Below, one piece after another: positions 18,647-55,161 of a stretch of DNA of 64,000 bases. This DNA comes from a virus (taxonomy: Duplodnaviria > Caudoviricetes), in IMG/VR virus record IMGVR_UViG_3300037851_000671, positions 128,001 to 192,000 of that record. One strand, written 5' to 3'. Each line of letters opens with the position of its first letter. Position 1 is the first letter of the stretch. The notes below the pieces were generated by a model. The model saw only the letters and a list, made by a program, of their open reading frames with translations, was not told the DNA's origin and ran no database searches. The translations under genes were made by a program, and so were the position numbers.

Positions 18647-18691
18647 ATTGGCATAATGAGGGATATAGTTGAAAACTTCCAAAGAGGAAAC

Positions 18692-21600: not shown

Positions 21601-24600
21601 AACAACAATTGTATCACAAGCTGCTCCAATACCAATTCCAACAGATTCTGATACCAGCCTGCATTTCAGATTTGCAGAAAGTGCAGCGCCTTTCCTTAGC
21701 TCCGGTGTTAGTGCTCTATCACTTTCTGTTTTGGGCAACGCTCCAACTGTAACCACAAGTGTAAATGAGGTGTTTGGAAGCGCTGTTCAATTCAATGCAG
21801 ATGGATTGTTAACATCAAATGACACCACGGTTGGAGAGGTTAGCGGAACGGCATGTACCATCACTATGTGGGTTAAGATTCCGTCAGTAATTGCTAGCGG
21901 AGTTTTCCTTGCGAAAAAGTATGATTCATCTGTCAACGTTTGGGGATATCCGTTTATTTCTGTATACATGGCCCTTGAAGCGGCTTTGGACGGATCTTGG
22001 AACGTCTCACTAACAACAGGGGGAACGCTTACAGGAATAACAGTACCAACCGTTATCCCAATAGATACATGGACATTGATTGGTTTCACTTATGATGGTA
22101 GCGTTGTAAAAACATACCACAATGGTAGCTTGGTAAATGTAACCCCATTGGTTGGATCGATAGATTGGGGAGCACATGGACCGTGGTGTGTTGGTGGTGG
22201 TATCAGTAGTAGCACTGGTATTCAGCTTAATAACGCCACAGTTGACGACATAAGAATTGAAGGTGTTGTAAGAGATGCAACGTACATGTCAAACATGTAC
22301 AATGCTACTGGTCTGAAATTCAATGTTGGAACTACACTTCCACCATATGATGTTTGGGGAGATAACGTTGTCATAAACCATGCAGCAACTCCCGCAAACA
22401 ATAGCGTTGCAACTCCTTTCAAGGCTGTTGGATACATATCAACGAGCGAGGAGATTGTGTATTACAATCCTGCCGGAAGCGCGCCAGATTATGGAATAGC
22501 CGGCCCACGAGGTATTTCGTTTCCGGGCGTTACCTGGGAGTTGTATGGACCGAACGGAGCAAATGGTTCTGATAACTTCATTGGCAATGGTAGTCTTAAC
22601 CGTATTGATTCTCTTGGTAAATATCAATCTAACTACAGCTCCGTTGTTGGTGGTTATTCTAACGTAATCTCATCTTGTGCAGGTGCATTTGTTGGTGGTG
22701 GTAATGGTAACTCTATCACAAACGCATCCAACTATAGCGCTATTGTTGGTGGACAGAATGGAAAGATTTCAAATTCTACGAAATCTTTTATCGGAAGCGG
22801 AGACGGTGCAACTATAAACAACTCTTCAGCGGTTGGTGTTATAATTGGATGTGGAATCAATGGTAACATAAATGGTAGTCAGTCTTCTGTTGTTGGTGTT
22901 TTAGGTAGCGGGCCAAACACAATTGGTGGCGCTGGTATCAGGTATAGCCACCTTGGTGTTATGATGGGTAATGAAACCATCACTGATAGCGCCCTTCAAT
23001 ACTCAAACATTGGTGTCATGCTTAATGGAGCCACCATTAACAATGGAGGGTTGAATTACAGCAATATTGGTTATATGAATTACTCTGTAACCATCAGTAA
23101 TACTGGTGTTCAAAACTCAACCATTGGATATATAAGCGCCGGTGCTGTTGTTAACAATGTCTCAAGCTCATCTATTGGGTACCTACAGTCCGTAACTATA
23201 AACTCATCAGGTATATCTGGTTCATCTGTTGGTTATCTTGGAAGTGGAACAACAGTAACAAGTGCTGGTATTAGCTCGTCAAATATCGGAAGGATGAGTG
23301 GTGGTATAACCATAGACCAAAACGGAATACTATCTTCCAACGTTGGTTTTGTTGGTAGCGGTGGAGCGATAAGTCAGATACTTGACGCTGATATAGGTCT
23401 AATAAACGGAAACATATCACTAACACAAAACGGAATTCAGCACTCATCTGTTGGATATATTGGTGCTTCGACAACAATTGCTGATGGTGGTGTCACGTAC
23501 TCTGCTATTGGGTATATGTCAGGAAATACCTTAAACGATGGTGGTATAACCCACTCTTCAGTTGGAATAATGGATGGAGCATCTACCATTACCAATAACG
23601 GTATACAAAGATCTGCCATTGGTTATATTTCAGCAAGCTCCACAATAAACAATGTTCAATATTCACACATAGGAACGTTATCTGGCGGTGCAACGATTGG
23701 CACAGATGGCGTTACATACTCTACCATTGGATACATTAGTGGTGGAGCTAATATCTCTGCAATCTCTTACTCTGGTATTGTGGCAATAACCGGAGGTGCA
23801 AGCATCAACGCAAGTGCCAACGGAACGGTTGTTTCACAATCGTTCATTGGTTTGATGCAAGGTGGAACATCGGTTAGTTGCAATACAGGAAAGGGTATTG
23901 TAAACTCTTGTGTCGGGTATTTTGATGGTGGTGTTACAGTTGCTGGTGACGGTATCACAGGATCATATGTAGGACGTATTGGTGGCGGAACCAACATCAA
24001 CGGATCTGGAATACTTGGAGCTTCGTTCATTGGTCTTGTTGATGGTGGTTGCACTGTCAATAACGTAAGCGGCTCATCTCTGGTTAGGGTTGGTGGTGGT
24101 ATATCAGCAACCAACATTTCTAACTCTTTTGTTGGAAATGCTTTTGCTGGACCAACGATCTCCGGTCTAACAACTACATTTATTGGTATAATCCAAAGTG
24201 GTAGTACGGCATCAACCGTTGGATACAGCTTCCTTGGAACGCTAAACAACGGCGGAAGCGTTACAAATAGCAACTATGCTTTCTTTGGTGTTTGCGGAAA
24301 TAGCAGCTCTATTGCTGATAGTAACAACGCGTTCATTGGTGCCGGTGTATCAAATACAATATCAAACGCAGACTACTCAACAATTGTCAATGGTAACAAT
24401 TGCCATGTTGAAGCTGACTACGGAGAGGCTTCTGGTAAAAACAGCTCAGCAAGGTTGGTTGGACAGGTTGTCAGATCTTTGGGTCAGTTTGCTACACAGG
24501 CTGATAACCAGGTTTCAAATCTCATAGTAAATGGAACCGCCCCAGGAGGCCTTGCTTTTGCTCTTGAAATTCCTGGTGATGGATATGTAACTCTTGAGAA

Positions 24601-24886
24601 TGACAAGGTTTACGACATCTCTATCAGGGTTGTTGTAACGACCACATCTGGTTCTTTGCTAAGGGCAAGGTTCAATCTTGATGTTTTGGCATACAAGCAA
24701 TCTGGTGTGGTTTACATTGATGATGTAACTACGGTAAGTTCAGTGATTGCTGGAACAGACTGGAACGTTACAGTTGACTCTGGCCCAGGCACGGATGTTC
24801 TAAACATTGTGATAGATTCTTCTACTTACATACAAGACAGAAGAGCAATGGCAACGGTAGAGTGGAGAGAAATTGGAGTAGTATGA
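18692..24886 (+). CDS. Large tail-fibre/spike-like structural protein (collagen repeat, GGxxN repeats, LamG domain, beta-solenoid)
   Basis: 2064 aa from ATG 18692 (GAGG RBS); G-X-T triplets, many IGGGxxN units, LamG-type WTLIGFTYDG...DDIRI segment. Confidence 0.75.
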   Translation: MSNNPAFPYARYPFDLDDHRPVDTFGVPVVSDGTTPVKAEVPNRHSDIVLAIEAELGLLPSGTFDTVRARLDAIEAMIRSGGGTGATGPTGATGPVGPTGATGPTGATGPTGSTGPAGPLVPLSTILGVGNSTGSNNIDVQDGYKVILGNNGLGVDSYVSGAVGGDFFPGTINLYANQTAIKIFPVVNPSLPDASGQIVLITSPYSTATGGGKEGQLYVQPAFYIPGITTDTWGSPGGLGYNGIGGGVGWYVGDGYGDFFAGGVGFGGGDHYTNDTYSVIDGYGARWQTASAGGTNGGAYWDGWHVFQGALELAPLHRDPTSLNHATLGFGSLLYAKTVSGNAYSSPKVTPVINELFWKRQDDTVEQITGMNYATQTWVDGYFASWGLPQVLGINPNTSGHDIIMTTTDKFQFSHGYIQNTTSFNVNVDTGIDYILTVDNNIIAGNSHSVTGVVVGAVIAGGSNNTITDTNNSVIGGGTQNTIIDATGSSILSGIDGYIAYSKGSIISGGIQNTITVLDSSWDGYNVISGGARNSIINSSESAIFSGYNNKITALDGLVVSGDSNIISGGRNNEIMLGFGSTIAGGQGNKSIGFNVWSIWPSQTFIGGGTDNLVIGNFNAPIIVGGERNVIAAVNSSVGDVVVGGEDNIIGATVLGTATTSVSGSTVTLVIGHGVTASIIGEYILISDSENIGNNGRFAITAVPTTGTIEYTNASAVTGTTVYFLLDIFNLSLNNFIGSGDSNKILSNIKNSASDQNVITGGSHNTISAIATHSAITNVIGGGQTNSIYGGLAHFIGAGQDNTISSSSVGNSVACSIVSGIDNSIGATNDTYESSILGGQQNTIDAFDGSSGTYQSIILGGQNNYIGRTPNSLSVQSMIGVGGYNTVSSIWGTLGSGYYNALSNDTATPNAQSRVQGGSSLVNGSHNFILNEQEAFIGTGYKNTIVVGQGDTIVGGESNTIGGIGSFQATTTIVSQAAPIPIPTDSDTSLHFRFAESAAPFLSSGVSALSLSVLGNAPTVTTSVNEVFGSAVQFNADGLLTSNDTTVGEVSGTACTITMWVKIPSVIASGVFLAKKYDSSVNVWGYPFISVYMALEAALDGSWNVSLTTGGTLTGITVPTVIPIDTWTLIGFTYDGSVVKTYHNGSLVNVTPLVGSIDWGAHGPWCVGGGISSSTGIQLNNATVDDIRIEGVVRDATYMSNMYNATGLKFNVGTTLPPYDVWGDNVVINHAATPANNSVATPFKAVGYISTSEEIVYYNPAGSAPDYGIAGPRGISFPGVTWELYGPNGANGSDNFIGNGSLNRIDSLGKYQSNYSSVVGGYSNVISSCAGAFVGGGNGNSITNASNYSAIVGGQNGKISNSTKSFIGSGDGATINNSSAVGVIIGCGINGNINGSQSSVVGVLGSGPNTIGGAGIRYSHLGVMMGNETITDSALQYSNIGVMLNGATINNGGLNYSNIGYMNYSVTISNTGVQNSTIGYISAGAVVNNVSSSSIGYLQSVTINSSGISGSSVGYLGSGTTVTSAGISSSNIGRMSGGITIDQNGILSSNVGFVGSGGAISQILDADIGLINGNISLTQNGIQHSSVGYIGASTTIADGGVTYSAIGYMSGNTLNDGGITHSSVGIMDGASTITNNGIQRSAIGYISASSTINNVQYSHIGTLSGGATIGTDGVTYSTIGYISGGANISAISYSGIVAITGGASINASANGTVVSQSFIGLMQGGTSVSCNTGKGIVNSCVGYFDGGVTVAGDGITGSYVGRIGGGTNINGSGILGASFIGLVDGGCTVNNVSGSSLVRVGGGISATNISNSFVGNAFAGPTISGLTTTFIGIIQSGSTASTVGYSFLGTLNNGGSVTNSNYAFFGVCGNSSSIADSNNAFIGAGVSNTISNADYSTIVNGNNCHVEADYGEASGKNSSARLVGQVVRSLGQFATQADNQVSNLIVNGTAPGGLAFALEIPGDGYVTLENDKVYDISIRVVVTTTSGSLLRARFNLDVLAYKQSGVVYIDDVTTVSSVIAGTDWNVTVDSGPGTDVLNIVIDSSTYIQDRRAMATVEWREIGVV
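18938..19048 (+). repeat. Collagen-like (G-X-T/P) repeat
   Basis: GTGATGPTGATGPVGPTGATGPTGATGPTGSTGPAGP. Confidence 0.9.
22934..24340 (+). repeat. Degenerate ~16-20 aa protein repeat G-I-x-x-S-x-I-G-Y-h-x-G-x-x-T-I
   Basis: e.g. GLNYSNIGYMNYSVTISNT, GIQHSSVGYIGASTTIADG, GVTYSTIGYISGGANISA. Confidence 0.8.
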
Positions 24887-30827: not shown

Positions 30828-31334
30828 TCATTCTGGAAGATCGTAGACCACAACATTGATATTGCGCTTGATCAGTTCGTCATCAATTATTTGCTGAACC
30901 TTAGCCCAATCACCTCCAGCCAAACCGCAACCGATACGTGGCATGTGGGCAGTGCCGTTGTACTCGCTGATTTCATCACCGGCTTTGGACAGACACTTTT
31001 TCAGAGCCTCATAACGGATTGGTGGCTCGCCTTTTTCATCTTCACCAATGCCATGCTGTGCAATCATGTTGATAATTGCAAGGTCACTGAGAACCTGAAT
31101 AACCTGAATCTCTCCTAGCGGAATCTTTCCAAACTTCAGGCGCCAGAGGTTACGATACTCTGATTCGGCCTTTGGCCAGCGTTTTGCCAAAGCTCCTGAA
31201 AATCCGGCGCCATATCCGCCTACGTCATTACATACCTGAAGGATGTATCGCATGTTACTGCCCTGAGGCTGTGTTGCATCACCCTTGATGAACTTGAATG
31301 TACCCTGTGGGCCAAACTTGCTTGGTTTTCTCAT
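30828..31334 (-). CDS. Macrodomain (Poa1p/TARG1/DarG-like) ADP-ribose hydrolase
   Basis: KGDAT, VCNDVGGYGAGF, NMIAQ, MPRIGCGLAGGDW. Confidence 0.9.
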   Translation of the reverse strand: MRKPSKFGPQGTFKFIKGDATQPQGSNMRYILQVCNDVGGYGAGFSGALAKRWPKAESEYRNLWRLKFGKIPLGEIQVIQVLSDLAIINMIAQHGIGEDEKGEPPIRYEALKKCLSKAGDEISEYNGTAHMPRIGCGLAGGDWAKVQQIIDDELIKRNINVVVYDLPE

Positions 31335-41992: not shown

Positions 41993-42379
41993 TCATATAC
42001 CCCTGGTTATCAGAAAGTTGTCTATTAGATTGGTGAATTCTGAATTGCCGGTGGCTATTGACCTATCTCTGAGCTGTTGAAGCAGACCAAGATAATGCTT
42101 ATTCTTTTGCCACTTGTCAGAAAGAAGGCGAAGCTCTTCCTTGAGCTTTCGATTCTCTCTATGCATTTCAACAACTGTTTCAAGAGCATCCATCTCTAGT
42201 ATGTTTAGTTCATAGCAGATGCTTTTTAGTATTGGACCAGCAGCTTTATCATAGTTAGATAACTCATAGTCAATAGCCTTAAGCTCTTCTGAGATGGCGT
42301 TGTAGACATCATCTCTGACATTTTTCAGAGATTGCTTTGTTACCCTTCTTATTCTTTCCAGTATATCTTCACTGATCAT
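41993..42379 (-). CDS. Hypothetical protein
   Basis: 128-aa ORF. Confidence 0.65.
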   Translation of the reverse strand: MISEDILERIRRVTKQSLKNVRDDVYNAISEELKAIDYELSNYDKAAGPILKSICYELNILEMDALETVVEMHRENRKLKEELRLLSDKWQKNKHYLGLLQQLRDRSIATGNSEFTNLIDNFLITRGI

Positions 42380-43338
42380 TTTGCACCGTCCACCGAAGGA
42401 ATAAACTGTTGGGCAAGGTCAGCAAAATACTCTGGTGTCTTGGCTGTGCTCATGTCCAACTTGAACTTTGGTTTTTCTATACTGTTGTAAATCTTTTCTC
42501 TGAACTCGTCTTGTTCACGTTTACCAAGAACAGGCAAATCAACATTACTAGGCCTATTTTGCTCAAGCTCAAATATCATAGTTTGAAGAATTCTCATTTC
42601 TTGATAAGAGAATGTACGGGCACAGTAAGCCTGATCCAGCCATCCTTCAAACGCCATTGGAAAACAAATCTTAACCATGGCCGCCATCACATTGGCAAAC
42701 TCACGTATCTCCCATTGCGCATGAGAATCGGCACGCAAACCCAACATGTGCAAAAGGTTATGAAGGTCCATCTTCCAATACCACTCAGTATAGGTCGAAA
42801 GAGGAAGATCAATCCTGGCAAGTTCCCTAGCTACTCCACCCTCTATAGCTAAAGAGTACATATCGGAAACTTCCTTGCGGACGTAAATTGAATCTTCATA
42901 GAAATCGTTTATGACATCGTTGCCCAACTCACCATCACGCCCTTGTTTATTACTCTTGCTTTGAGCTTTCAGATTCTCTACCTGGGGTGTATAGAACTGA
43001 AGTGGCATTACAGAATAACGCCCAGAGTATTCATTCAAGCTTGCTGTTCTATGACGCACAAGCTGTCTTGCAACAAAGATAGGAAGCCTCATGTGGAATT
43101 TCATTTCCACTTGCTCAAGAGGAGATGTGTGACGGTGTCTAATCAAGTATCTGATGAGTTTTTCATCATCACTTGTTGTTTTGGTTCCGGCTCCGTAACT
43201 GCAACGAGCCGCCTGAGCAATGGCAGCATCATTGCCGCAATAATCCAGAAGAGCGCAAAAACCGTAATCTAATACTGGAAAGTATTTGTTTAGTAAACTT
43301 TCTGCTCCTGGGGAGATTGGGCGCAAAGATTCACACAT
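42376..43338 (-). CDS. thyX: Flavin-dependent thymidylate synthase
   Basis: RHRHTSPLE, RQLVRHRTASLNEYSGRY, ARELAR, HAQWEIR. Confidence 0.95.
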   Translation of the reverse strand: MCESLRPISPGAESLLNKYFPVLDYGFCALLDYCGNDAAIAQAARCSYGAGTKTTSDDEKLIRYLIRHRHTSPLEQVEMKFHMRLPIFVARQLVRHRTASLNEYSGRYSVMPLQFYTPQVENLKAQSKSNKQGRDGELGNDVINDFYEDSIYVRKEVSDMYSLAIEGGVARELARIDLPLSTYTEWYWKMDLHNLLHMLGLRADSHAQWEIREFANVMAAMVKICFPMAFEGWLDQAYCARTFSYQEMRILQTMIFELEQNRPSNVDLPVLGKREQDEFREKIYNSIEKPKFKLDMSTAKTPEYFADLAQQFIPSVDGAK

Positions 43339-44098
43339 GATTCCACGTCCTTCCATATTTGATATCAGAAATTGTACTTGGTGATACGTTGTATTTTTTA
43401 GCTAGCATAGGGACCTTGTTTTGTATATCTTGTTTTATAGACAAGACAATGTCTTCGTTTAGTTTTGCGTTGTGGTGTTTTGAGCCATTTCGCGAGAATG
43501 GTTTTATGTGTAGCGTATCAGTGATATGAGTCCAAGAAACTCTTCCAATAATTGAGTGTACTACGGAAATGGTACACCCAATTTTTTTTGATATGTTTTT
43601 TGCGTTTTGCTCACAGTTCCACATATTAACAATTTCTACCACATCATCATCTTTAACAGAAGCGCAATGATGCTTTTCTCCAGTTTGTGATAGTCCAATT
43701 TTGTTTTTTGTAGCCTGTGATAATTTTCTACCAAGATATCGTTTAGATTGCAGATCTCTTCTTTTTTGTGTCCATGGTATACAATTTGGTGTGTTGGCTT
43801 TTTTGCTTGAGTTGAATCCGATTTTGTTATCGTATACTTTAAGGTGGTCTATCCAATACTGCTCCCTATCAATTAGGTATTTTGGATCGTTTACCACCTC
43901 TACTTTCTCAAAAGTGAAAGAAGCCTCACCATATTTATTCCATGCTCTTTGAAGCCGTATGCAATGATGTTTGTTTTGTCGTAAACACCTTCTATGCTCA
44001 TACCATCGTTTATACATGTTTTTAGAAGAGCCAATGTATATTTTACCATTGGATGAACATGTGATCCTGTACACCGCTACAACTCTTGAATTTGCCAT
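43331..44098 (-). mobile_element. GIY-YIG homing endonuclease with NUMOD3 and HTH-like domains
   Basis: AVYRIT...KIYIGSS...RW..H; true start MANSR at 44098. Confidence 0.88.
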
Positions 44099-44110
44099 AT
44101 ACCTATGGCA

Positions 44111-44116
44111 AAATAT
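44111..44116 (-). promoter_or_regulatory. ATATTT, one-mismatch copy of candidate late promoter
   Basis: Exactly 12 nt before ATG 44098. Confidence 0.45.
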
Positions 44117-44120
44117 TACA

Positions 44121-44243
44121 TCAATCAACAAGGCTTACAAATCCATAATCCAATACAGGGAAGTACAGACCAAACAAAGGCTCTGCAAGTTCGTTCTTAC
44201 GGAATGTTTTAGCTCTAACATTTGCTATTTCTAACTCAGTCAT
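44121..44243 (-). pseudogene. Orphan 5' stub of thyX
   Basis: MTELE...LYFPVLDYGFVSLVD* mirrors KYFPVLDYGFCALLDY of intact ThyX; own GGAG RBS. Confidence 0.85.
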
Positions 44244-44245
44244 AT

Positions 44246-45274
44246 TCAAACTCCAATCGTTACAACGTCATGAGGCTTGCTCTCAACAAAACCTGAGTTA
44301 CTAATCTCAATGAACTCAGGGTTTAGTTTCAAATCTTTCAGATTGTCAACACCTTGATATGACATACCAGATGTGATTCCGTCCAAAAGTTTCTCAATCA
44401 CTTTTTCAGCACTTCCGCGATATGGAACAAGACCAGCAACACCTTCAACGTGTGATGTCTTGTGGGTAGAACTCCCTGCGTATTTCTTGTATGATTTGCC
44501 ATTCAATGTAATGATGTCACCTGGAGCTTCATCAGTCCCGGCTAACAAATTACCAATCATACACAAATCAGCAAAACACATGGCCTTGACACAATCTCCG
44601 CCATTACGAATGCCACCGTCAGCAATAAACATTGGCTGTTCAACATCATCTCGTAAAGCATACCCAATTGAATTAGCAACATCATCAAGCGCCGAGAGCT
44701 GTGGAACGCCATTGCCAGTTTCAATACGAGTTGTGCAAAGGCTACCGGGCCCAATGCCAACCTTTATTATGTCAGCTCCAGCTTTCCAAAGGAAATTGGC
44801 CCCCTCTGCTGTTGCAACATTACCAGCAATGATTAGAATGTCTTTATGGTTGTCTCTTAGTTTTGAGACAAACTTTCCAACACGTTCATGATGACCATGA
44901 GCCACATCAACACAGATGATACGACAACCTTTTTCTATGAGCTTGTCTGCAAGCAACTCATCATTTTGCTGTATACCAACGGAACATCCTATGTTATTGG
45001 TATGGACACCACCATTAGATGCAACAAGCCAGTTTTGAATTATTTCCTGTTGTGTATCAAACCTGTGAAGAAGCGCTAACCCACCAAGACAAGCGATGGT
45101 TTTAGCCATAGAAACCCCAGTAACAGTCTTCATATTGGCAGATATGATTGGTATCCTCAGACCAAAACCTCTCGGAAGTTTTACTGAAAGATCAACATTT
45201 GATCGTGATGGTACACTGCTCTTCTTTGGCTTCAGAAGAACATCATCGAACGAATAGCTTTTAGTAACTTTCAT
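44246..45274 (-). CDS. IMP dehydrogenase/GMP reductase family (no CBS domains)
   Basis: SFDDVLL, DVAHGH, KVGIGPGSLCTTR, IADGGI, EGV. Confidence 0.9.
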   Translation of the reverse strand: MKVTKSYSFDDVLLKPKKSSVPSRSNVDLSVKLPRGFGLRIPIISANMKTVTGVSMAKTIACLGGLALLHRFDTQQEIIQNWLVASNGGVHTNNIGCSVGIQQNDELLADKLIEKGCRIICVDVAHGHHERVGKFVSKLRDNHKDILIIAGNVATAEGANFLWKAGADIIKVGIGPGSLCTTRIETGNGVPQLSALDDVANSIGYALRDDVEQPMFIADGGIRNGGDCVKAMCFADLCMIGNLLAGTDEAPGDIITLNGKSYKKYAGSSTHKTSHVEGVAGLVPYRGSAEKVIEKLLDGITSGMSYQGVDNLKDLKLNPEFIEISNSGFVESKPHDVVTIGV

Positions 45275-45341: not shown

Positions 45342-46625
45342 TTACATCTGCCTACCAGAACCCTTCTTCCTTAAACTTTCAGCCTCTGGCATCAACTCTC
45401 CATCGGCCATTTCTTTAACAAATATCTTTGGAAAATCCCATCTACCATGGTGTTTCTTTCCCTTTTGTTCCCATACAATATCAACATCTGATAGTTTTCG
45501 TGATTCAATCTTGTCACCACGTACATATTCAGTGACCTCGGCTTTATCAACAATGCCAACATCACCATCAACATGATGAACTCTCATTCCTTTGGTAAAG
45601 TTTTCCAAAGGGTAATTGCTAAGTGGCACAGCAGAATCTCTAACAGACCAAGCAAAGGCAGCCCTTACAGATGCATCTTCTTCGTGTCTGACACCAACCA
45701 CTCCGCCATTGAAACTCATTGGATACATTTTGCCGTAGTAGTTCCAAACGAACGGAGCCTCACTCATGCCCTTTGGAAAATTACCACCAGTAATCCAGTG
45801 AGATGAAAAGTCCATTTTCTTGTCATCTGTTAGGTATGGATAGAAAGCAAGTATATGACCATTGATGAACGGCCCTCCGCTTCCACCACCATCATTATAG
45901 AAACCTTTCCAGAAATCAGTATGATCTTTTCCTTGAGCAGCGGAAACAAACTCATCAAGAACAGGCTTTAGTTTATCTGTCCACCAAGACAGGCCAAGCT
46001 CATCAAAAACATTCACTCTATTGCGTATGTTTTTCCAGTCTTCTACAGAGCCTTCAAGGGTTACTCTTGGAATACCACAACGGGTTGACATGCCATAGTC
46101 AAAATAACTCTTCATTGCGTCCATCAGAGTTATCTCGCTAGCAAGCTTGGCTAGAGGTGTAGTTGTTGAGAAATCAGATACTATAAGGTCACGTTTCTTT
46201 CCAATGTATTTTCCAATCCTCTCAGAGAATTCAGGGAAAGTATCCTCCCATGGGTTTTGACCACCTTTTACAAAGTTATCTCTAGATATCTCAATGAATA
46301 CTTTGCCATCAAAATCAACAAAATGCTTTCTAAGCTCCTCGGCATTTAGATTGATATGTGTGGCAAGTCCTTTGGTTATGGTCAGCCAAATAGCGTCAGG
46401 ATCTAGTATTAGCGGGTAGTGACAATCAAATGAAGATTGCACAACGCTATACAGGCCCTGCGTGGACCAGCGGCGCACCAGCTGATCGGGAGTTGAACAG
46501 GCCTCAAGCGCAAACCTGTAATTTTCCTTTAGAGACTCTTTGACGGTACAAAGACTTGTCTTTTCTATTTGTGTATTGGTTTTGAATGAGCTGTTCTTTT
46601 CACAGACTTTGAATGTTACGGTCAT
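45342..46625 (-). CDS. DUF4419-like protein
   Basis: HYPLILDPDAIWLTI, DFSTTT, MKSYFDY...CGIP.VTLEGS.EDW. Confidence 0.75.
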   Translation of the reverse strand: MTVTFKVCEKNSSFKTNTQIEKTSLCTVKESLKENYRFALEACSTPDQLVRRWSTQGLYSVVQSSFDCHYPLILDPDAIWLTITKGLATHINLNAEELRKHFVDFDGKVFIEISRDNFVKGGQNPWEDTFPEFSERIGKYIGKKRDLIVSDFSTTTPLAKLASEITLMDAMKSYFDYGMSTRCGIPRVTLEGSVEDWKNIRNRVNVFDELGLSWWTDKLKPVLDEFVSAAQGKDHTDFWKGFYNDGGGSGGPFINGHILAFYPYLTDDKKMDFSSHWITGGNFPKGMSEAPFVWNYYGKMYPMSFNGGVVGVRHEEDASVRAAFAWSVRDSAVPLSNYPLENFTKGMRVHHVDGDVGIVDKAEVTEYVRGDKIESRKLSDVDIVWEQKGKKHHGRWDFPKIFVKEMADGELMPEAESLRKKGSGRQM

Positions 46626-47400: not shown

Positions 47401-48201
47401 TCACTTCCATTTATAAATCATACTATCTACTGGGCATTTCCCAATTACATCAAAAAAGTGTTGAGATTTGGATTGTGAAATGCCTATGACATATCCAGTA
47501 CCACTGTTTGTTTTCTTCAATGACATACCAAGCTCGAAAGACTCGTTGAACAGTGAGCAAAGCATTTCTTGTTCTGTTTTAGTAAACGATTGTGACGACA
47601 TGGTTATTGTAATCTGTTTTGTTTTTGACTCCTTTCTCCTGTGAGATGACGATCCGTCATCAAGAAACCAATGAAGAAGTGTGGTGGTTGTAACACACAC
47701 GTTATTTGGAACAACCTTCTTACCAGCCGGATACCAATCTTTGTATAGAGCGTCAAGATTTTCATTGGCAAAAGATGATAGTTTGTGATATGTAAAAGAC
47801 TTGCCATTGATGATGTTTGTGTCATCAACAATCCTGTCAGAAACATTGCAATCAAATAATTGATTAGCTACGAACTCAACATGATCGTAGTTTTTGTTTT
47901 TCTTGTAGAAATATGGCATGCTTAGCTGACTGCGCGGGTTAGACTTTTTCAACCCACCATCACCAAGCAAACAGCCATGCAACACCTCAAGGTTCAGACG
48001 AAACCCATCTGAACGTTTGTGTGTCTGCGCTTTACTTCTATTTCTAATCGGTATGCTGAATCGGGCAAGCGCTTGACGAACGGAGTTACCAGTCGGAGCA
48101 CCTATAGACCTTGCGATGTCTAGTGTGCTCCGACCATTGTCTAGGTACTCACGGACAAGCCAGTCCCGATCATTTAAGCAAGCGTATTTTCTTGACTCCA
48201 T
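47401..48201 (-). mobile_element. Free-standing LAGLIDADG homing endonuclease
   Basis: LHGCLLGDGG and LLHWFLDDGS helices, SQSFT..E. Confidence 0.85.
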
Positions 48202-48230: not shown

Positions 48231-49757
48231 CTATACAATCTCAAGAAGGTAACGTATTCCAGACTGGTTGTTTGAATCATTGAAATCATATGTAATCATT
48301 TCATCATTCCTCAATGTCCCACCATTCATATCGGAGCCGGCTTTTCCGTACACTGAATGGTATCCGTTTGGAGGACATTTGAAAAACTGAGATCTGTTAG
48401 ATTTGTGTTGCTTACCCATAGACACATCAAGCAGAAACATGAAACGAGATGAAATTGAACGGTTTCCACCTGTCCAATAACCTCCGTCGCAATAGTTTAG
48501 AGATTTTGTTGACTGCCAAGCAAAATATTTTCCATCACCAAACAAAGATCCAGTGTATACAGCTCCAGTGGGACGAATCATCAGACCGCGCCTGGTGATA
48601 CCAACCAGATTGGCGCTCCTGGTACCGTGCCAGCAAAGCCAGACATTGGCATCGTTGTAGAGCTTGACCAGTGGCTTATCCAAATCTGGACGCTTCTCAG
48701 GAACCCAAAGCTTGCTCTTGTCATGAGAAAGACTCTCGGTTTCGCTGGCAAACGTATGCCTCCCGTTTTCCTTACCAATACGCTCTGTGGTTTTGATGAA
48801 GGCGGCTTCTTTGGCATCCTTGCGCTTCATTGACCAGATGCGAGCTACTTTATTGGCGTCGTATCCATGGCCACGAACCTTGGTGTCATTGAAATAGCCA
48901 GACAAGAACTTGAACAGGTCGGAAGTGGGATCGACAGTATCAAAGTCACAGTTGAGACTGAGATACTTGTCATCAGAGCTGGAGTCCGCCTTGAGCACAG
49001 CGTTGACTTGCTTGGCGTCAAGTAGGGTATCCAGGTCCCCTTCTTTGGCAACGATCTTGTCCAGAGTATCCAGCAACAAATGACTCATCTGACCACGCGC
49101 GCCGGCCCCTAGATTGTGGGGAATGGTAGCGTAGAAAGTATTGGTCAGTGCAAGGATCTCTTTTGTATCGTCAGAAGACAACCTTTTGTTGCCATTGACA
49201 ATTACCTTGGCTTTATCCAGGGCTTCACGTCCCTTATCAATCTGCTCGTTTGAGAGCTGACCCAAAGGGCATTTTAGAGTCTGTGCAACGAAATTGGCCT
49301 GAGCACCGAAGAAGATATCTACAATGCGGCGCTGACCTTCGTTGAGTGAGCTTTTGGGTGCTGCATCCAAGTGTTCGGCATTCTTGAATACCACTGGCTT
49401 GGTAATCTGCTTTGCACCATCGCTACCAATAGCACGCTGGGCAACATCAATTCTCGTGTACCCTTTCTTTTCCTTGCTCTTGATGATCTTGTCCATTTCT
49501 TTCTTGGCTTCATCAAAACTGGAAAAACAGCGATACTCACGAGCTTGGACCTTACCAGTGGGGCCATACATCGTGAAGAGCTGAGCACGCCCACCGTTCT
49601 TTTCTACCTGCAACTCGGCATGATAGAACTTATTACTAGTACCTTTGGTGTTTGCCTTCTCGCCGGTCATGTCGAAGAAATTGAGTTCAACAACCTCTTT
49701 GACATCATATGAACCCTCATGAAGGATTGGGGTGTTCTGGCACTTTGCGGCAGCCAT
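48231..49757 (-). CDS. PARP1-like poly(ADP-ribose) polymerase (WGR, regulatory and catalytic domains)
   Basis: SNKFYHAEL..YGPTG; PLGQLSNEQI..NTFYATIPH; WHGT, FGDGKYFA, KSLNY, NDEMITYD (H-Y-E triad). Confidence 0.9.
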   Translation of the reverse strand: MAAAKCQNTPILHEGSYDVKEVVELNFFDMTGEKANTKGTSNKFYHAELQVEKNGGRAQLFTMYGPTGKVQAREYRCFSSFDEAKKEMDKIIKSKEKKGYTRIDVAQRAIGSDGAKQITKPVVFKNAEHLDAAPKSSLNEGQRRIVDIFFGAQANFVAQTLKCPLGQLSNEQIDKGREALDKAKVIVNGNKRLSSDDTKEILALTNTFYATIPHNLGAGARGQMSHLLLDTLDKIVAKEGDLDTLLDAKQVNAVLKADSSSDDKYLSLNCDFDTVDPTSDLFKFLSGYFNDTKVRGHGYDANKVARIWSMKRKDAKEAAFIKTTERIGKENGRHTFASETESLSHDKSKLWVPEKRPDLDKPLVKLYNDANVWLCWHGTRSANLVGITRRGLMIRPTGAVYTGSLFGDGKYFAWQSTKSLNYCDGGYWTGGNRSISSRFMFLLDVSMGKQHKSNRSQFFKCPPNGYHSVYGKAGSDMNGGTLRNDEMITYDFNDSNNQSGIRYLLEIV

Positions 49758-49773: not shown

Positions 49774-50001
49774 CTATGCTTTGGCAAACACTTGCCTATT
49801 GATCCAGAGGATCTGATCAAATTTCATCTGGTAAGAACAAGTATCGCACTTGTAAGATTTAATCTTGCTCGGTATGAATGGCATTTTACAGGCCGGACAG
49901 GCGGCGAGCATAGAACCCTCTTTAGACATCCTAACAAGCTCTATCCCAACCTTTTGTAATTGATCTGCGTTATCTGTCATCAACAATGGATATACCATCA
50001 T
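49774..50001 (-). CDS. Small zinc-finger protein
   Basis: CPAC...CDTC. Confidence 0.6.
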   Translation of the reverse strand: MMVYPLLMTDNADQLQKVGIELVRMSKEGSMLAACPACKMPFIPSKIKSYKCDTCSYQMKFDQILWINRQVFAKA

Positions 50002-50029: not shown

Positions 50030-50998
50030 ATGGACAGAGAATTCAGAATAGCTGCCTTTAACCAACTGCGAAAGAATGCCGCAGATCCTATACCTTCATC
50101 CAACTCATTCGCGGAGACGGACTGGTCTGCTGTCGATTGGTCGAAAGCCGGAATCCTCGGAGATAAGATCCGTCAACAATTCGCAGACAACAAGTTCAAG
50201 TACAGTGGGGCTGGAATCGGGCTGAGTGTACCGAACACGCAAGTAATCTGGCCAGGACCACAGTGTATCCATCCTGACGGCTCTGTCAATATCCTTTTCT
50301 TCTTTCGTGGAGGAGGAGCGGACGTAATGAGCAAATCTTCGACCAATGCAATAGTAGTGATGGCAGATGCTGGAGGTATTGGTGGAGGAGCTAGTGCTAA
50401 TCAATTCGGAAATGCTTCATTCGTAAATAGTTCAGTGCAATCAATCATAGCTCAACTAAAGAACAAATTTCCAGACAAGAATATTCATCTCGGTCATCTT
50501 GGTTTCACTGGCTGGTCTGGAGGCTACGCGCCCATTGGAAGAATACTATCCTCTGGAGGTCTAGTGAAACAACCAGATCACGTCAGTGTTCTTGACGGCA
50601 TTCATGAAGGGGATCTTCACAAACCAAATGGGGCATCACTAGACAAGCAATGGAAAGGTATCATTGACGCAGCAAAAGACGGCAAAACAGAATTCACGTT
50701 TGTACACACAGCGGTGAACCCTGGATCTTATGCAAGCACAACTGATGCGGCCAATTACTTCCTGGCACACAACAATATGTCACGCCAACCAGTTGAACAA
50801 TGGGATGGCAAAGGTAAAAAACCGGATTCAATAGCTTCGGCTGGTAACTTCAAAGTGGTGCAACTGTACTCTGAAGAACAGCCTTATATGGTCAAAGACC
50901 CTTCGGGGCAAAACAAACCTAACATACCTGGAACTGCCGGTTATCAGCACATACAGGCTAGAAACTCTGCCCCGGACTATCTTCCTAACTGGGCTTAA
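50030..50998 (+). CDS. Alpha/beta-hydrolase-fold protein
   Basis: Nucleophile elbow GWSGG, VLDGIH, late His (GYQH). Confidence 0.7.
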   Translation: MDREFRIAAFNQLRKNAADPIPSSNSFAETDWSAVDWSKAGILGDKIRQQFADNKFKYSGAGIGLSVPNTQVIWPGPQCIHPDGSVNILFFFRGGGADVMSKSSTNAIVVMADAGGIGGGASANQFGNASFVNSSVQSIIAQLKNKFPDKNIHLGHLGFTGWSGGYAPIGRILSSGGLVKQPDHVSVLDGIHEGDLHKPNGASLDKQWKGIIDAAKDGKTEFTFVHTAVNPGSYASTTDAANYFLAHNNMSRQPVEQWDGKGKKPDSIASAGNFKVVQLYSEEQPYMVKDPSGQNKPNIPGTAGYQHIQARNSAPDYLPNWA

Positions 50999-51204
50999 TT
51001 AGGTAGGTCATCGTTATCTGGGATGTGTTCGCTTGAGACTGCATGAATCTCAACATCCAAATCATCGTTGATAAATTCACAAGTAATCTCTCCCTCAAAG
51101 TCTTCGGGTAGATCCCTGACCATTATTGCCCATGCGATAGTAGCTAAAGCCTCATCCCTAGTAAGGGTCTTTTTAAGTATTGACATCTCATAGGGATATA
51201 TCAA
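50995..51204 (-). CDS. Hypothetical protein
   Basis: 69-aa ORF. Confidence 0.6.
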   Translation of the reverse strand: MIYPYEMSILKKTLTRDEALATIAWAIMVRDLPEDFEGEITCEFINDDLDVEIHAVSSEHIPDNDDLPN

Positions 51205-51836
51205 CCTCGTTTTAGCGATTCTATAATTGCTTGCGCTGCCATTTCACCATTTTCGTAGTCATTCAAGTTGAAAAGTGTTGGCCGCATGAAGCCGCTCATT
51301 CTGGCAGCTTCCACGTTCTCTGGCCTGTCATCAAAGAACGGAACGTCAGTCCAGCCGTGAGACAGGAAGAAACTCTGAAAATACAACGCCTGAGGTTTCC
51401 TAGCTCCAACCTCACATGAAAAATGACGTATGCAATCCGAGAATTCAGGAATCATATGCATCAGCAAACTAGCATGATCTGTTCCAACGTTGGACAACAA
51501 ACAGACCACAGTACCGTCTGATATCAAAGATTCAACCATGTTTATCATTGGTTGACATGGCTTTACTGTGTTCAACCAAGCCTGTTGAATAGTGAGTATG
51601 TCAGATTCAGATGCATGTGGTATGGCAGTCAAAATGCACTGCTTCATATTCACAAGTCCCATATCCTGGCTGGCTTGTATGGAGGAAAGCCAATCGTAGG
51701 CGTGCAATATAGTAGGCCACCTGCTCGGATACTGTTTTACAATGGTAACCAAGAACGAATCAATGTCAACATAACACAGTACATTACCAATATCAAAGGC
51801 AACAACTTTAGCTGAGAATTTCTTCGAGGTATTCAT
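51201..51836 (-). CDS. HAD-family hydrolase (YihX-like)
   Basis: FDIGNV, LSN, FSCEVGARKP, FFDDRPENV. Confidence 0.85.
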   Translation of the reverse strand: MNTSKKFSAKVVAFDIGNVLCYVDIDSFLVTIVKQYPSRWPTILHAYDWLSSIQASQDMGLVNMKQCILTAIPHASESDILTIQQAWLNTVKPCQPMINMVESLISDGTVVCLLSNVGTDHASLLMHMIPEFSDCIRHFSCEVGARKPQALYFQSFFLSHGWTDVPFFDDRPENVEAARMSGFMRPTLFNLNDYENGEMAAQAIIESLKRG

Positions 51837-52629
51837 GTAACAATTTTCCTTTTTCAACAACCAATGGCTTGGTGGTTGTTTCTTCCGATTTATCTCTTAT
51901 CCATTTTATTGATTTTGAACTTCCAAAATCAACACCAATTTTAAATCTCTCAACCAATAGACCATTAAGCATTGTCTCGATATCTGGTGATGATCTGGTT
52001 ATCATAGGCACCATGCCACTTGAAACAATATCAGCAACGAAACTAGTTTCACCAGTTGTCAATCTCTCGTTGCTTTTCAGGACAAGGTCATCGAAAACAG
52101 GATCGGGAGAAGAGTAACATAGCTGTGTATTGTTTGTCTCTGTGTATGGTGTAACCAGATCGTATCCATCTTCCAATCCAATGAATGAATAGACAAAATA
52201 CCTATCAGCTTTAGGAAGTTTGCTAAGTAGTGTTTTTTGAGAGCGAAAGATTGGCTGGCTAACGCTTTTCAACAGAAACAATGGACTACAGTATATCAAA
52301 GGCTTGCCAAGTATAGCCGCCATATTTGCTGAGAAGAACTCAACATCACTGATGACAATGTCTGGATCCCAATCTATGATGTCGTCAATTATGAACTTTG
52401 ACAGTTTCTCTGATACGGATGGTGAAAAGAGTCCAAAGTTTTTTCTGAAAAACCCACCAGTCTTAACGTCAAAGACAGGATCTAGCGCCCAATCTATCCA
52501 CTGGATATATTTGGAGCGCCTATAGAAAGCCAGTATCTTGACATCGTGTTGGTGTTTGATGTGTGGAAGAAATCTCCCACCAAAGATATCAGACCCAGGT
52601 CTATCATTGATCCCTAGAAGTATCTTCAT
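51808..52629 (-). CDS. Divergent GT-B glycosyltransferase-like protein
   Basis: MKILLGI, WDPDIVISDVEF, GKPLI pattern. Confidence 0.55.
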   Translation of the reverse strand: MKILLGINDRPGSDIFGGRFLPHIKHQHDVKILAFYRRSKYIQWIDWALDPVFDVKTGGFFRKNFGLFSPSVSEKLSKFIIDDIIDWDPDIVISDVEFFSANMAAILGKPLIYCSPLFLLKSVSQPIFRSQKTLLSKLPKADRYFVYSFIGLEDGYDLVTPYTETNNTQLCYSSPDPVFDDLVLKSNERLTTGETSFVADIVSSGMVPMITRSSPDIETMLNGLLVERFKIGVDFGSSKSIKWIRDKSEETTTKPLVVEKGKLLHEYLEEILS

Positions 52630-52633
52630 GTCA

Positions 52634-53278
52634 TCAATAACAATCAGAGAACTTTTCTTGAATCAAAGGCTTGAAAACCTCAATGATTTTCTCGAACAGG
52701 TCTTTGGTCATTTTCACGTCACCATCAGCTCTGTGTGCTTGAGCTTTTGTGATTCCAAATGACTTCACCAGAGAACCAAGGTTGTATCGTCCGCGATGTT
52801 TACCAGTGCATACATCTATGATTCTTACAAGGTCTATCGTATCCAATATCATAGATACGTTTCTCTTGGTTCCATCCTGATTATCTATCCAATAGCCAAA
52901 TGGGAAATTGTCTATATCGCCAGAACGTTCCCAGAGTTTCAATAGGAATGAATGATCGAATTCTGGATTTTGTCCGATGAATATTCTATCTTCGGCGGCG
53001 GCACCATCGGCCATGAGCCACATCTCTATGTCTGGAAGAACCTGAGATGGATGGAGATATTTCTCTTTGCCTGCGGCTGTTTTGTGTAGGATGTCTTCTT
53101 TCTTGTGTCCGTTGATTTGAAGGGCTTTATCTTCAATGTTAGCGGCACTTAGTGGTGATAGACACCATGTCTTGCTTTCTGGATCGCCTATACGCCAGAA
53201 GCAGACCTCAATTATGTCATGCTTGTTAGGGTCAGTGCCTGTAGTTTCTGTGTCAATGACGTACTCTACATAGCTCAT
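52634..53278 (-). CDS. DEDDh 3'-5' exonuclease (second paralogue)
   Basis: DTETTG, GQNPEFD, AHRADGD. Confidence 0.9.
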   Translation of the reverse strand: MSYVEYVIDTETTGTDPNKHDIIEVCFWRIGDPESKTWCLSPLSAANIEDKALQINGHKKEDILHKTAAGKEKYLHPSQVLPDIEMWLMADGAAAEDRIFIGQNPEFDHSFLLKLWERSGDIDNFPFGYWIDNQDGTKRNVSMILDTIDLVRIIDVCTGKHRGRYNLGSLVKSFGITKAQAHRADGDVKMTKDLFEKIIEVFKPLIQEKFSDCY

Positions 53279-53484: not shown

Positions 53485-53859
53485 TTACTCCTTTGTTATC
53501 TTGTCTGCGATATTCCTTTTGAATTCTGCTATCGAGCGCCATCCAACTCTAAATCCTTCAAGCAAAAAAGACATACCTACAGATGTTTTCATGAAGTCTT
53601 TTTCTTTTGATGTAAACCTTGAGCCCTTTATATTGAGTAGTATTTTGTTATCGTTATCAAGAACATTCCAATCTTCAAGAGCGCCGCCTTTTTCTACTGG
53701 AACGCGTTTGATTCTTAGGACTTTTCCTGGCTTGTTATCATCGTCGTTGAACAGTTCGGTATCATGCTTTGATAATGAGTTACCAACCTTACCAGCAGAG
53801 CTTCCCTCGTCATATACAAACTCATCATTTTCAACAATGTATTTCTCGTAATTCTTCAT
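53485..53859 (-). CDS. Hypothetical protein
   Basis: 124-aa ORF. Confidence 0.65.
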   Translation of the reverse strand: MKNYEKYIVENDEFVYDEGSSAGKVGNSLSKHDTELFNDDDNKPGKVLRIKRVPVEKGGALEDWNVLDNDNKILLNIKGSRFTSKEKDFMKTSVGMSFLLEGFRVGWRSIAEFKRNIADKITKE

Positions 53860-55109
53860 TTCAAGGCTCCATCTACAGCTAACACTCCCATAATACCGGC
53901 AGCAGCAATACCCTTTATACCGGCGCTTTCACCAGCTACGAACAAACCTTCAACTTCAGTTTCCAAATTAGATGCTATGTTTATCTTGGTGGTGTTCGTA
54001 TCCACATCAGGTACATGGAAATAACCACGGGCAGATAGATTTGGAATGAATGTGTTGATTATCTCAACAGCCTCTGGCAGCCAAGCGTACTCTGGAAGAA
54101 GAGATATCTGATCTGTTTTCTTCAAGAAGCTTTTCAATTTTTCTCTGCCAACCCTATCTCCAGACAGCAGATATGACAGTTTAGCTATTCTATCTGTTTG
54201 CTGCCATCCCTCCCCATCTTGTTTGATTTTCTTTTTGATAGAGAAGAACGCCTTATCTGTTTTCCATCTATCTTCATTTGACCTGAATGATGCGATTGTA
54301 ACATCAGCATGGTCCTCTTGAATTATAGAACCAAACCAATTTATAGGCCCAACAGATAGACCATCAGAGACAAACGAACAATGTGACTTGTTGAACTCTT
54401 TGAGAGTAGAGGCTGGTAATTCTGCTCTGATTCCGTATGAGGTATAATCGTTCTCAAGCAGTATTCCAAAACTTGAGTACAGTTTGTTGACCCATCTCCA
54501 TCCACTTCTTCCAACACAAAGAATGAGTTTCTTGCAGGAAAAATCACCTTGTGACGTGACAACCTTGAATGATTTGCCAGTCTTCAAAATAGTGAAAACA
54601 TCGGTATCAAACGACAACACGATGTTTCCGGCTTCCTCAATCTTGTCAGCAGAAATCTTTGACAACTGGTGAATCATCTCAGGAGACCACTGTTGATATG
54701 TGTGGTGTATGAAAGAGAAACCCTCTTCTTCGGCTTTTTTCTTGACTGTCTGGTTTGGCAGCTTTGTCTTGATCAGTTTGTCTGTATTGATCTCCTCTAT
54801 CTGTGACGAGAAGAACTTGGTTGCCATCTTGACCTTGCGACCATCAGCAACCTCAAGAACCTTGTTGGCATCTTCCTCAACATAAACCTTTCCATCTCCG
54901 GTAGGAAAACAGCCAAACCAACCTTCAAGTTGGCGGCGTCTACGTTTGATGTGAATCGGATCTTGACGTAAGCAGTTTGGAGGAGGTGGACCAAACTCGA
55001 ATACAATGCTTTTTAAGTTTTTGTGTTTCTCTGCCAGTCTCAGAGCAGCAAAAACACCAGATACCCCCGCGCCGATTATACCAATATCATAAGTTGAAGC
55101 TGTTGTCAT
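53856..55109 (-). CDS. FAD-dependent oxidoreductase (uncharacterised flavoprotein family)
   Basis: IIGAGVSG, GDGK, LCVGRSG, LFVAGESAG..GI..A. Confidence 0.8.
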   Translation of the reverse strand: MTTASTYDIGIIGAGVSGVFAALRLAEKHKNLKSIVFEFGPPPPNCLRQDPIHIKRRRRQLEGWFGCFPTGDGKVYVEEDANKVLEVADGRKVKMATKFFSSQIEEINTDKLIKTKLPNQTVKKKAEEEGFSFIHHTYQQWSPEMIHQLSKISADKIEEAGNIVLSFDTDVFTILKTGKSFKVVTSQGDFSCKKLILCVGRSGWRWVNKLYSSFGILLENDYTSYGIRAELPASTLKEFNKSHCSFVSDGLSVGPINWFGSIIQEDHADVTIASFRSNEDRWKTDKAFFSIKKKIKQDGEGWQQTDRIAKLSYLLSGDRVGREKLKSFLKKTDQISLLPEYAWLPEAVEIINTFIPNLSARGYFHVPDVDTNTTKINIASNLETEVEGLFVAGESAGIKGIAAAGIMGVLAVDGALK

Positions 55110-55161
55110 ATTGTCCTGTGTAAGATTTAACAGCTTTGATATAACGAACATTGGACGGCTT

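Follow-up and report, generated by a model that had tools for sequence, protein, structure and literature searches.

The stretch of viral DNA analysed here (64,000 nucleotides, hereafter the window; bases 128001-192000 of the IMG/VR virus record IMGVR_UViG_3300037851_000671) carries a gene for a PARP-family (H-Y-E) protein, designated P0001, that has a complete NAD+ site, consisting of the H-Y-E triad and the Ser/Tyr nicotinamide pocket. The gene is intact, maintained by selection and located in a conserved gene block, and its product is very probably a working enzyme. P0001 belongs to a large, almost exclusively viral subfamily (over 117 orthologues) that has replaced the WGR-domain arginine on which the DNA-dependent switch of PARP1, PARP2 and PARP3 relies, and we infer that it is probably a helical-domain-gated ADP-ribosyltransferase (ART) with an activation wired differently from that of PARP1-3.

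The open reading frame (ORF) is uninterrupted and starts with ATG, about 10 nucleotides downstream of the ribosome-binding site GAAAGG. The gene and the parts of its product are located in the window as follows.

48231..49757, minus strand: PARP gene P0001 (508 aa; WGR, helical regulatory and ART domains), from the ORF, Pfam, profile and structural alignment
49428..49724, minus strand: WGR domain of the prokaryote type, about aa 12-110, with KKGY at its C-terminus, from Pfam (aa 33-103), the model and an alignment that begins at PARP1 residue 538
49560..49568, minus strand: Y-G-P (aa 64-66) replacing W-G-R (PARP1 W589-G590-R591), from the profile alignment
48963..49352, minus strand: helical regulatory domain (HD, PARP_reg), about aa 136-265, in which PLGQL and LDTLLD are conserved, from Pfam and alignments
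48234..48962, minus strand: ART catalytic domain, aa 266-508, with H377, Y411, S419, Y422 and E486, from Pfam and alignments
48651..48812, minus strand: clade-specific helical insertion, aa 316-369, with an R-P-D-L motif, from the model and alignments
48300..48308, minus strand: N-D-E, comprising the catalytic Glu486 (PARP1 E988) and Asn484 at the position of PARP1 Y986, from the profile alignment

The succession of WGR, helical regulatory and catalytic domains, proposed in a preliminary description of this DNA, was confirmed. All three Pfam families scored above their gathering cut-offs (WGR, PF05406, aa 33-103, 44.5 bits, cut-off 22; PARP_reg, PF02877, aa 158-264, 52.6 bits, cut-off 26.8; PARP catalytic, PF00644, aa 304-477, 70.6 bits, cut-off 26.7), the fold was matched over the full length, and every motif quoted in that description is present: YGP (aa 64-66), PLGQLSNEQI (164-173), NTFYATIPH (206-214), WHGT (376-379), YFA (411-413) and NDE (484-486). 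In a single-sequence search the closest solved structures were PARP1 catalytic fragments (E 2.7e-24), and a profile of 27 orthologues (alignment A1) matched the WGR-CAT chains of PARP1 with E 1.3e-41. The AlphaFold2 model of P0001 (mean predicted local distance difference test score, pLDDT, 81.4; predicted TM-score, pTM, 0.68), in which the WGR domain is built of strands at aa 17-78 and a helix at aa 81-97, was matched by Foldseek over its full length to DNA-break-bound PARP1 and PARP2 WGR-CAT chains (E 1e-25). VIA-align superimposed model residues 12-508 on 4dqy_C with a Z of 27.1 and a root-mean-square deviation of 2.9 A over 384 residues, and gave Z values of 25-27 with PARP1 and PARP2 catalytic fragments. 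The triad is complete, as had been claimed: in the profile alignment H377, Y411 and E486 correspond to PARP1 H862, Y896 and E988, and the pocket residues S419 and Y422 to S904 and Y907 (aligned segments, PARP1/family: LLWHGSR/lcWhGtr, GIYFAD/gkyfaw, SKSANYC/tkslnyt and LLYNEYIVYD/vlnDemityd).

Two sets of sequences were used for comparison. A word-indexed search returned 444 clusters, the best 120 of which were proteins of about 505 aa that are 46-67% identical and in many cases come from contigs of 90-234 kb; residue counts were taken over 117 full-length orthologues aligned with MAFFT. A HMMER search returned 3,034 cluster representatives at E <=1e-3 (1,266 at E <=1e-10); from the best 150 of these, the 124 of at least 380 aa were aligned with nine family members and scored for four traits.

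A notable difference from other PARPs lies in the third position of the W-G-R motif. The PARP1 segment S-W-G-R-V-G-T aligns to i-Y-G-P-T-G-a of the family profile, with two invariant glycines as anchors, and the register was identical whether 117 or 133 sequences were aligned with MAFFT. The third position is Arg in none of the 117 orthologues (Pro in 96, Ala in 19, Gln and Ser in one each), whereas it is Arg in 115 of the 124 other PARP representatives and in the PARPs of the cultured phages XacN1 and FBKp34. The first position is Trp in 57 orthologues, Tyr in 56 (Y64 in P0001) and Phe in four, so that Tyr or Trp is found in 113 of 117; in PARP1-3-type PARPs this aromatic residue, W589 of PARP1, stacks on the 5' nucleotide. 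The substitutions R591A in PARP1, R140A in PARP2 and R103A in PARP3 abolish DNA-dependent activity and leave DNA-independent activity in place, and the Trp contact of the WGR domain is essential as well (Langelier et al. 2014, PMC4081085). Bacterial PARPs mostly have Tyr in the first place of the motif, and co-evolution within their WGR domain is strongest at the Gly and the Arg (Garcia-Saura et al. 2018, PMC5966428). By these alignments, the loss of Arg is a derived and fixed trait of the viral subfamily, at the very residue needed for the canonical switch. We also considered the family-invariant R76 as a relocated substitute and rejected it in this simple form, because the E-[YW]-R motif is already found in the sister group that reads Y-G-R. 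The preliminary description had taken Y-G-P as harmless and assumed activation by DNA breaks; as the Arg needed in PARP1/2/3 (PMC4081085) is absent from 117/117 orthologues, DNA-break-activated production of poly(ADP-ribose) (PAR) seems possible, but less likely than was assumed there.

Other parts of the protein are strongly conserved in the subfamily. H377, G378, Y411, S419, N484, D485 and E486 are invariant in all 117 orthologues, and Y422 is Tyr in 116. In the helical domain, P164, L165, G166, L168, L242, L245 and D247 are invariant and D243 is nearly so among the 27 orthologues of A1, with L245 and D247 remaining invariant across all 117; the domain thereby has the conserved Leu core and the acidic residues that in PARP1-3-type enzymes face the NAD+ site. 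PLGQL and LDTLLD(AK) of this domain are among the best-conserved stretches and were chosen as patterns for the search of related loci, eight of which were found on IMG/VR viral contigs of 54-435 kb. A scan of cellular genomes, in which 185,579 bacterial and archaeal species were each represented by a single genome, gave one match. As the catalytic residues are invariant at 46-67% identity, the subfamily is evidently under purifying selection; it is abundant and, on these searches, essentially confined to viruses. The sole cellular match (L013, JADFZM010000186.1; 43% identity) lies on a 2.8-kb contig of an Omnitrophota metagenome-assembled genome and is probably a mis-binned viral fragment; it might hint at the phage host.

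Within the PARP family, the set of 124 representatives and nine family members separates into eukaryote-type and short proteins. The former mostly have 600-1000 aa and long N-termini; about 40 residues make up the loop that precedes their catalytic Glu, and the position of PARP1 Y986 is Tyr in 16 of 18 proteins. In all short proteins (400-550 aa, P0001 included) this loop is 12-22 residues long and the Y986 position is nearly always occupied by Asn or His, with a few cases of Asp, Tyr or Phe; in P0001 the loop has 17 residues and the position is occupied by Asn484. In addition, 27 representatives carry, after the first ART strands and ahead of WHG, an insertion of 39-57 residues with a conserved R-P-D-L; PARP1 has about 11 residues there. 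The preliminary description had called P0001 eukaryote-like and proposed a phylogeny against bacterial and eukaryotic PARPs as a check. In the FastTree phylogeny, which was built without the insertion columns (filled in <50% of rows), the eukaryote-type sequences form one clade with a support of 99, and P0001 lies outside it. The insertion-bearing sequences form another clade (support 96), in which the Arg-less group of P0001 is nested (support 99) with insertion-bearing proteins that read Y-G-R as its sister. The likeness to eukaryotic enzymes therefore holds for the order of domains, but not for the short loop, the Asn at the Y986 position or the place in the tree; from its sequence, P0001 is PARP1-like in domain order and not specifically eukaryote-like.

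The inference of polymer synthesis from the H-Y-E triad was likewise overstated, because the triad by itself is no proof. H-Y-E is carried by PARP3 and PARP4, yet both are reported as mono-transferases. The triad would thus be necessary but not sufficient for polymer synthesis, and the sequence does not decide between poly- and mono-ADP-ribosylation. The Tyr-Glu spacing is 75 residues in P0001 and 92 in PARP1; in the CdPARP triad (H322, Y359, E428) it is 69 residues (PMC5966428). Both CdPARP and HaPARP make PAR in vitro (PMC8120803), and the short loop is consequently no bar to polymer synthesis, since CdPARP has a short loop too.

P0001 was further compared with characterised or annotated relatives. 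With the WGR-HD-ART core of human PARP1/2/3 (4dqy, 7s6h, 6x0l) it shares the domain order, H-Y-E, the equivalents of S904 and Y907, and the PLGxL and LDxLLD motifs, at a sequence identity of about 22-30%. It differs from the human proteins in having no zinc fingers or BRCT domain, in the replacement of Arg591 by Pro and of Tyr986 by Asn, in the loop of about 17 instead of about 40 residues, in about 50 additional aa that form a helical insertion ahead of WHG, and in the KKGY terminus of the WGR domain. The bacterial enzymes HaPARP (Herpetosiphon aurantiacus) and CdPARP (Clostridioides difficile CD160) resemble it in their compact arrangement of WGR, PARP_reg and PARP_cat with H-Y-E (PMC5966428, PMC8120803); the first WGR position is often Tyr here too, the Tyr-Glu spacing is short (69 in CdPARP, 75 in P0001), and both enzymes are active in vitro. 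However, bacterial PARPs keep the Gly-Arg of the WGR motif where the P0001 subfamily has Pro or Ala. They also come with a bacterial PARG, none of which was found in the half-genome contig of P0001, and, unlike them, the P0001 subfamily is virtually absent from cellular genomes. HaPARP and CdPARP were compared through their published residue numbers, and the status of the insertion was compared with anonymous representatives only.

The PARPs of cultured phages, namely gp111 of Klebsiella phage vB_KpM_FBKp34 (QQV91759.1), ORF414 of Xanthomonas phage XacN1 (BBA65562.1) and those of Cellulophaga phages phi4:1 and phi17:2, share with P0001 the H-Y-E triad, a short loop with N-[DN]-E, and a macrodomain gene in the same genomes. 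They are only about 26-31% identical to it, keep Y/F-G-R, and have neither the N-terminal extension of about 30 aa, nor the insertion of about 50 aa, nor a zinc-ribbon gene upstream. The T4 proteins Alt, ModA and ModB are also NAD+-using phage modifiers of host machinery, and T4-like phages carry a macrodomain too, but these proteins are mono-ARTs of the R-S-E clade, an unrelated branch of the ART superfamily, without WGR or helical domains. PARPs had already been noted in Aeromonas phage Aeh1 and Cellulophaga phage phi4:1, together with 28 bacterial PARPs, seven of which have the regulatory domain (Perina et al. 2014, PMC4245714), and in a few jumbo phages, for which, with the XacN1 protein cited, an action like that of phage ARTs was proposed, except that chains are added (Iyer et al. 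2021, PMC7824862); PARP1-like genes with a proposed role in DNA repair have been described in gut NAD-jumbo phages (PMC11662467). PARPs are indeed rare among cultured phages, being found in 16 of 50,697 phage records, as the preliminary description held, but the architecture itself is no novelty in a phage: the GenBank annotation of FBKp34 gp111 lists exactly the same three domains (see also PMC4245714 and PMC7824862). What is new is a virtually virus-only subfamily with an Arg-less WGR domain, an ART insertion and a frequent zinc-ribbon neighbour.

This neighbour and the other genes around P0001 were compared by BLASTP of the ORFs of eight related loci (L003-L010) against the window. The conserved block has the order FAD oxidoreductase, two small ORFs, RNase T-like exonuclease, GT-like protein, 219-aa protein, 69-aa ORF, 322-aa gene, Cys-rich ORF, PARP, a variable segment, and IMPDH/GMP reductase; the neighbours of PARP in it indicate no specific pathway. 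Its principal members in the window are the following.

53856..55151: FAD oxidoreductase
52634..53278: RNase T-like exonuclease
51808..52629: GT-like protein
51201..51860: 219-aa protein
50030..50998, on the strand opposite to PARP: 322-aa gene
49774..50001, minus strand: 75-aa CxxC...CxxC zinc-ribbon ORF, a candidate PARP partner, with its stop 17 nucleotides before the PARP ATG
44246..45274: IMPDH/GMP reductase

In the window and in L003-L006 (L003:5776-5985, L004:5706-5984, L005:5789-5983, L006:5771-5983), a zinc-ribbon ORF of 64-92 aa with an invariant CxxC-x13/14-CxxC ends 2-17 nucleotides before the PARP start, although the encoded proteins are only 21-29% identical overall. The ORF looks frameshifted in L007, and none was found upstream of PARP in L008-L010. 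A strict co-variation of the zinc ribbon with the loss of Arg was considered and rejected, as L008 and L009 have Pro without a zinc ribbon. Against Pfam, the zinc-ribbon ORF gave nothing above threshold and only a sub-threshold match to C1_2. In the window, this ORF and PARP are the first genes of a unit transcribed leftward, divergently from the gene at 50030; promoter and terminator scans remained at background level.

The slot 3' of PARP is variable and holds no conserved gene for a winged-helix partner. It is occupied by a LAGLIDADG gene in the window and L004, by GroES in L003 (a Cpn10 gene directly 3' of PARP, L003:7512-7814), by unknown ORFs in L005 and L006, and by a treble-clef zinc protein in L008 and L009. 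The last is a 525-aa protein that overlaps the PARP stop and has a DUF4379 treble-clef zinc finger, with a CapR homology domain in addition in L009 (L008:7461-9035, L009:7452-9029); in these distant Arg-less relatives a zinc-binding neighbour thus lies on the other side of PARP. The whole interval between PARP and IMPDH is an insertion hotspot with a different content in every relative. In the window it includes a DUF4419 protein of 427 aa (45342..46625, minus strand, 225.6 bits), which has no counterpart in the eight related loci.

The LAGLIDADG gene that had been reported next to PARP is real.

47401..48201, minus strand: free-standing LAGLIDADG homing endonuclease gene (LAGLIDADG_2, 87.7 bits), 29 nucleotides 3' of the PARP stop

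It follows PARP in two of nine genomes (the window and L004) and is absent from the seven other relatives; the L004 homologue is 47% identical, and the L004 PARP 57% identical to P0001. Such a distribution is that produced by a free-standing homing endonuclease, and the gene is a sporadic mobile neighbour. As to the earlier suggestion that it may target the PARP gene, the latter is itself uninterrupted. When the last 150 nucleotides of PARP and its 3' flank were aligned as DNA, the 22 nucleotides encoding N-D-E-M-I-T were best conserved, being identical in endonuclease-bearing and endonuclease-free genomes, and homology stopped at the stop codon; no difference in the PARP 3' end discriminated between the two groups of genomes. 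The target may be the PARP 3' end or an intergenic site. A GIY-YIG/NUMOD3 homing endonuclease gene (43331..44131, minus strand) adjoins a 326-aa gene (42376..43356), so that a stretch of 5 kb contains two free-standing genes for homing endonucleases.

The IMG/VR record has 218,772 bp and a CheckV completeness of 51%. The contig accordingly represents about half of the genome, and absences from it are weak evidence. Its phage origin is borne out by the record and by PHROG matches to baseplate and virion proteins, ribonucleotide reductase and a DnaB-like helicase; seven tRNA genes and, by Pfam, several homing-endonuclease genes were also found. Related contigs reach 392 kb, with a completeness of 91%, and 435 kb, with one of 100%, and the source is therefore a huge phage of about 400 kb. 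A megablast search of the PARP locus against phage records gave no match, hence there is no near-identical cultured phage among them. Two further observations concern the window: a 461-aa protein (3488..4873, plus strand) weakly matches PhuZ tubulin in PHROG (E 4.7e-6) and, if the match is real, may organise the phage replication compartment, and a 2,076-aa ORF (18656..24886, plus strand) has no PHROG match at E <=1e-5.

About 17 kb from PARP, the window carries a candidate for the removal of ADP-ribose.

30828..31334, minus strand: macrodomain protein of 168 aa, candidate ADP-ribose eraser (Macro, 25 bits)

This protein, which is of another class than the bacterial-type PARG, is close to BT1257 (2fg1, 1.4e-44) and also resembles 5e3b, an entry named 'Macrodomain protein' (1.9e-39). 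Homologues of 58-65% identity are found in four related contigs (G003, G004, G005 and G007, each at least 49% complete) and one of 31% identity in the complete 435-kb contig G008, so that every relative of at least 49% completeness has one; three related contigs that are 10-30% complete fragments gave no match. Weaker matches are present in XacN1 and FBKp34, in the latter about 2.5 kb from the PARP gene. As regards NAD+ metabolism, a NadE-like match stayed below the cut-off (14.9 bits). A cytidylyltransferase-like protein of 372 aa, of the superfamily that includes NMN adenylyltransferases, is encoded about 1 kb 3' of PARP in a relative (L007:8557-9672), with none in the contig of the window.

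Taken together, these results are probably best explained as follows. The conserved helical domain would keep the enzyme off until the WGR domain is occupied by its activating ligand, for which a nucleic-acid end or nick is the most likely candidate. Once activated, the enzyme would put ADP-ribose, as short chains or single units, on itself and on host or phage targets during infection, and the phage macrodomain would take the modification off. Because the whole subfamily has replaced the WGR Arg and gained the ART insertion of about 50 aa, the coupling of DNA binding to activation would have to differ from the canonical step, and the small zinc-ribbon protein whose ORF precedes PARP may take part in it. 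A bolder form of this reading, in which the Arg-less WGR domain, the insertion and the zinc-ribbon protein constitute a new two-component PARP switch, with the zinc subunit or a non-DNA ligand (RNA, a host or phage protein) replacing the bridge from the WGR Arg to helical-domain opening, is speculative and rather improbable. Several observations weigh against the scheme. The zinc-ribbon ORF is absent from the more distant Arg-less loci L008 and L009 and so is not strictly tied to the loss of Arg, and its model (pLDDT 75) gave no significant fold match, with RING, U-box and rubredoxin-like knuckles at E >=0.28. The PARP writer and putative macrodomain eraser co-occur consistently, but the association is not specific, since macrodomains occur in 1,550 of 50,697 phage records (about 3%), mostly T4-like phages and large myoviruses. 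No bacterial-type PARG (PF10021), nor any ARH, NAPRTase or other NAD+ salvage gene, NMNAT-like enzyme, LigA or Ku was found in the 218.8-kb contig (about 51% of the genome), and our literature search found no experimental study of any phage PARP.

P0001 could alternatively act as PARP1-3 do, making poly(ADP-ribose) at phage or host DNA breaks and organising repair or replication restart of the phage genome, a role proposed for jumbo-phage PARPs (PMC11662467). The superposition of the full-length model on DNA-break-bound PARP1 and PARP2 and the retention of the 5'-nucleotide-stacking aromatic residue (Tyr or Trp in 113/117) agree with such a function, as do the DNA requirement of HaPARP (PMC8120803) and the nearby homing endonuclease genes, in which the genome is rich and which make it break-prone. 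We nevertheless regard it as possible without being likely, because the Arg that is essential in PARP1/2/3 is absent from every member of the subfamily, no ligase, Ku, PARG or other repair partner was found in the block or the available half-genome, and the neighbours are nucleotide-metabolism genes that indicate no function. The loss of Arg, which speaks against the classic DNA switch, would also suit a mono-ADP-ribosyltransferase for takeover or counter-defence which, like T4 Alt, ModA and ModB, modifies host proteins (RNA polymerase, translation factors, defence proteins) or else nucleic-acid ends, its WGR and helical domains forming a module that responds to RNA or protein. The short loop, the Asn in place of Tyr at the Y986 position, the co-occurring macrodomain of the class related to 5e3b and BT1257, and the proposal that jumbo-phage PARPs act like T4 ARTs (Iyer et al., PMC7824862) are in line with it. 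This, however, is unlikely: the strong conservation of the helical and WGR domains points to a regulated, nucleic-acid-linked enzyme, the short-loop CdPARP and HaPARP make polymer, and the gene context suggests no target.

Consumption of NAD+ as the main role, with modification secondary, was among the suggestions of the preliminary description and would serve to shut down the host or to pre-empt NAD+-dependent defences. Hyperactivation of PARP1 does deplete NAD+. A lytic phage of such size, however, needs the energy metabolism of its host, no phage NAD+ salvage genes that would compensate for the loss were found in the contig, and a conserved brake domain with a dedicated eraser suits signalling rather than bulk consumption, which makes this role very improbable. 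That P0001 is a catalytically silent binding protein or a decaying gene can be practically dismissed: nothing beyond the missing WGR Arg speaks for it, and the invariance of H-Y-E and the pocket Ser, the pocket Tyr in 116/117 orthologues at 46-67% identity, the intact frame, and the conserved size and synteny all contradict it. A helical-domain-gated ADP-ribosyltransferase with altered activation remains the explanation we prefer.

As a gene discovery alone, another PARP in a phage is ordinary. The subfamily is, however, a natural experiment on PARP regulation, in which the brake and the DNA-stacking aromatic residue were kept, while the Arg needed by every studied DNA-dependent PARP was discarded, and it may show that the catalytic domain of PARPs can be reached allosterically by another route. 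To the best of our knowledge, no physiological role is known for bacterial PARPs, and here is a strongly conserved subfamily that abounds in metagenomes and is restricted to huge phages. If the two-component switch outlined above is true, huge phages own a PARP wired to a different signal; and the activator and targets of the enzyme, once worked out, would show how ADP-ribosylation is used in the conflict between phage and host.

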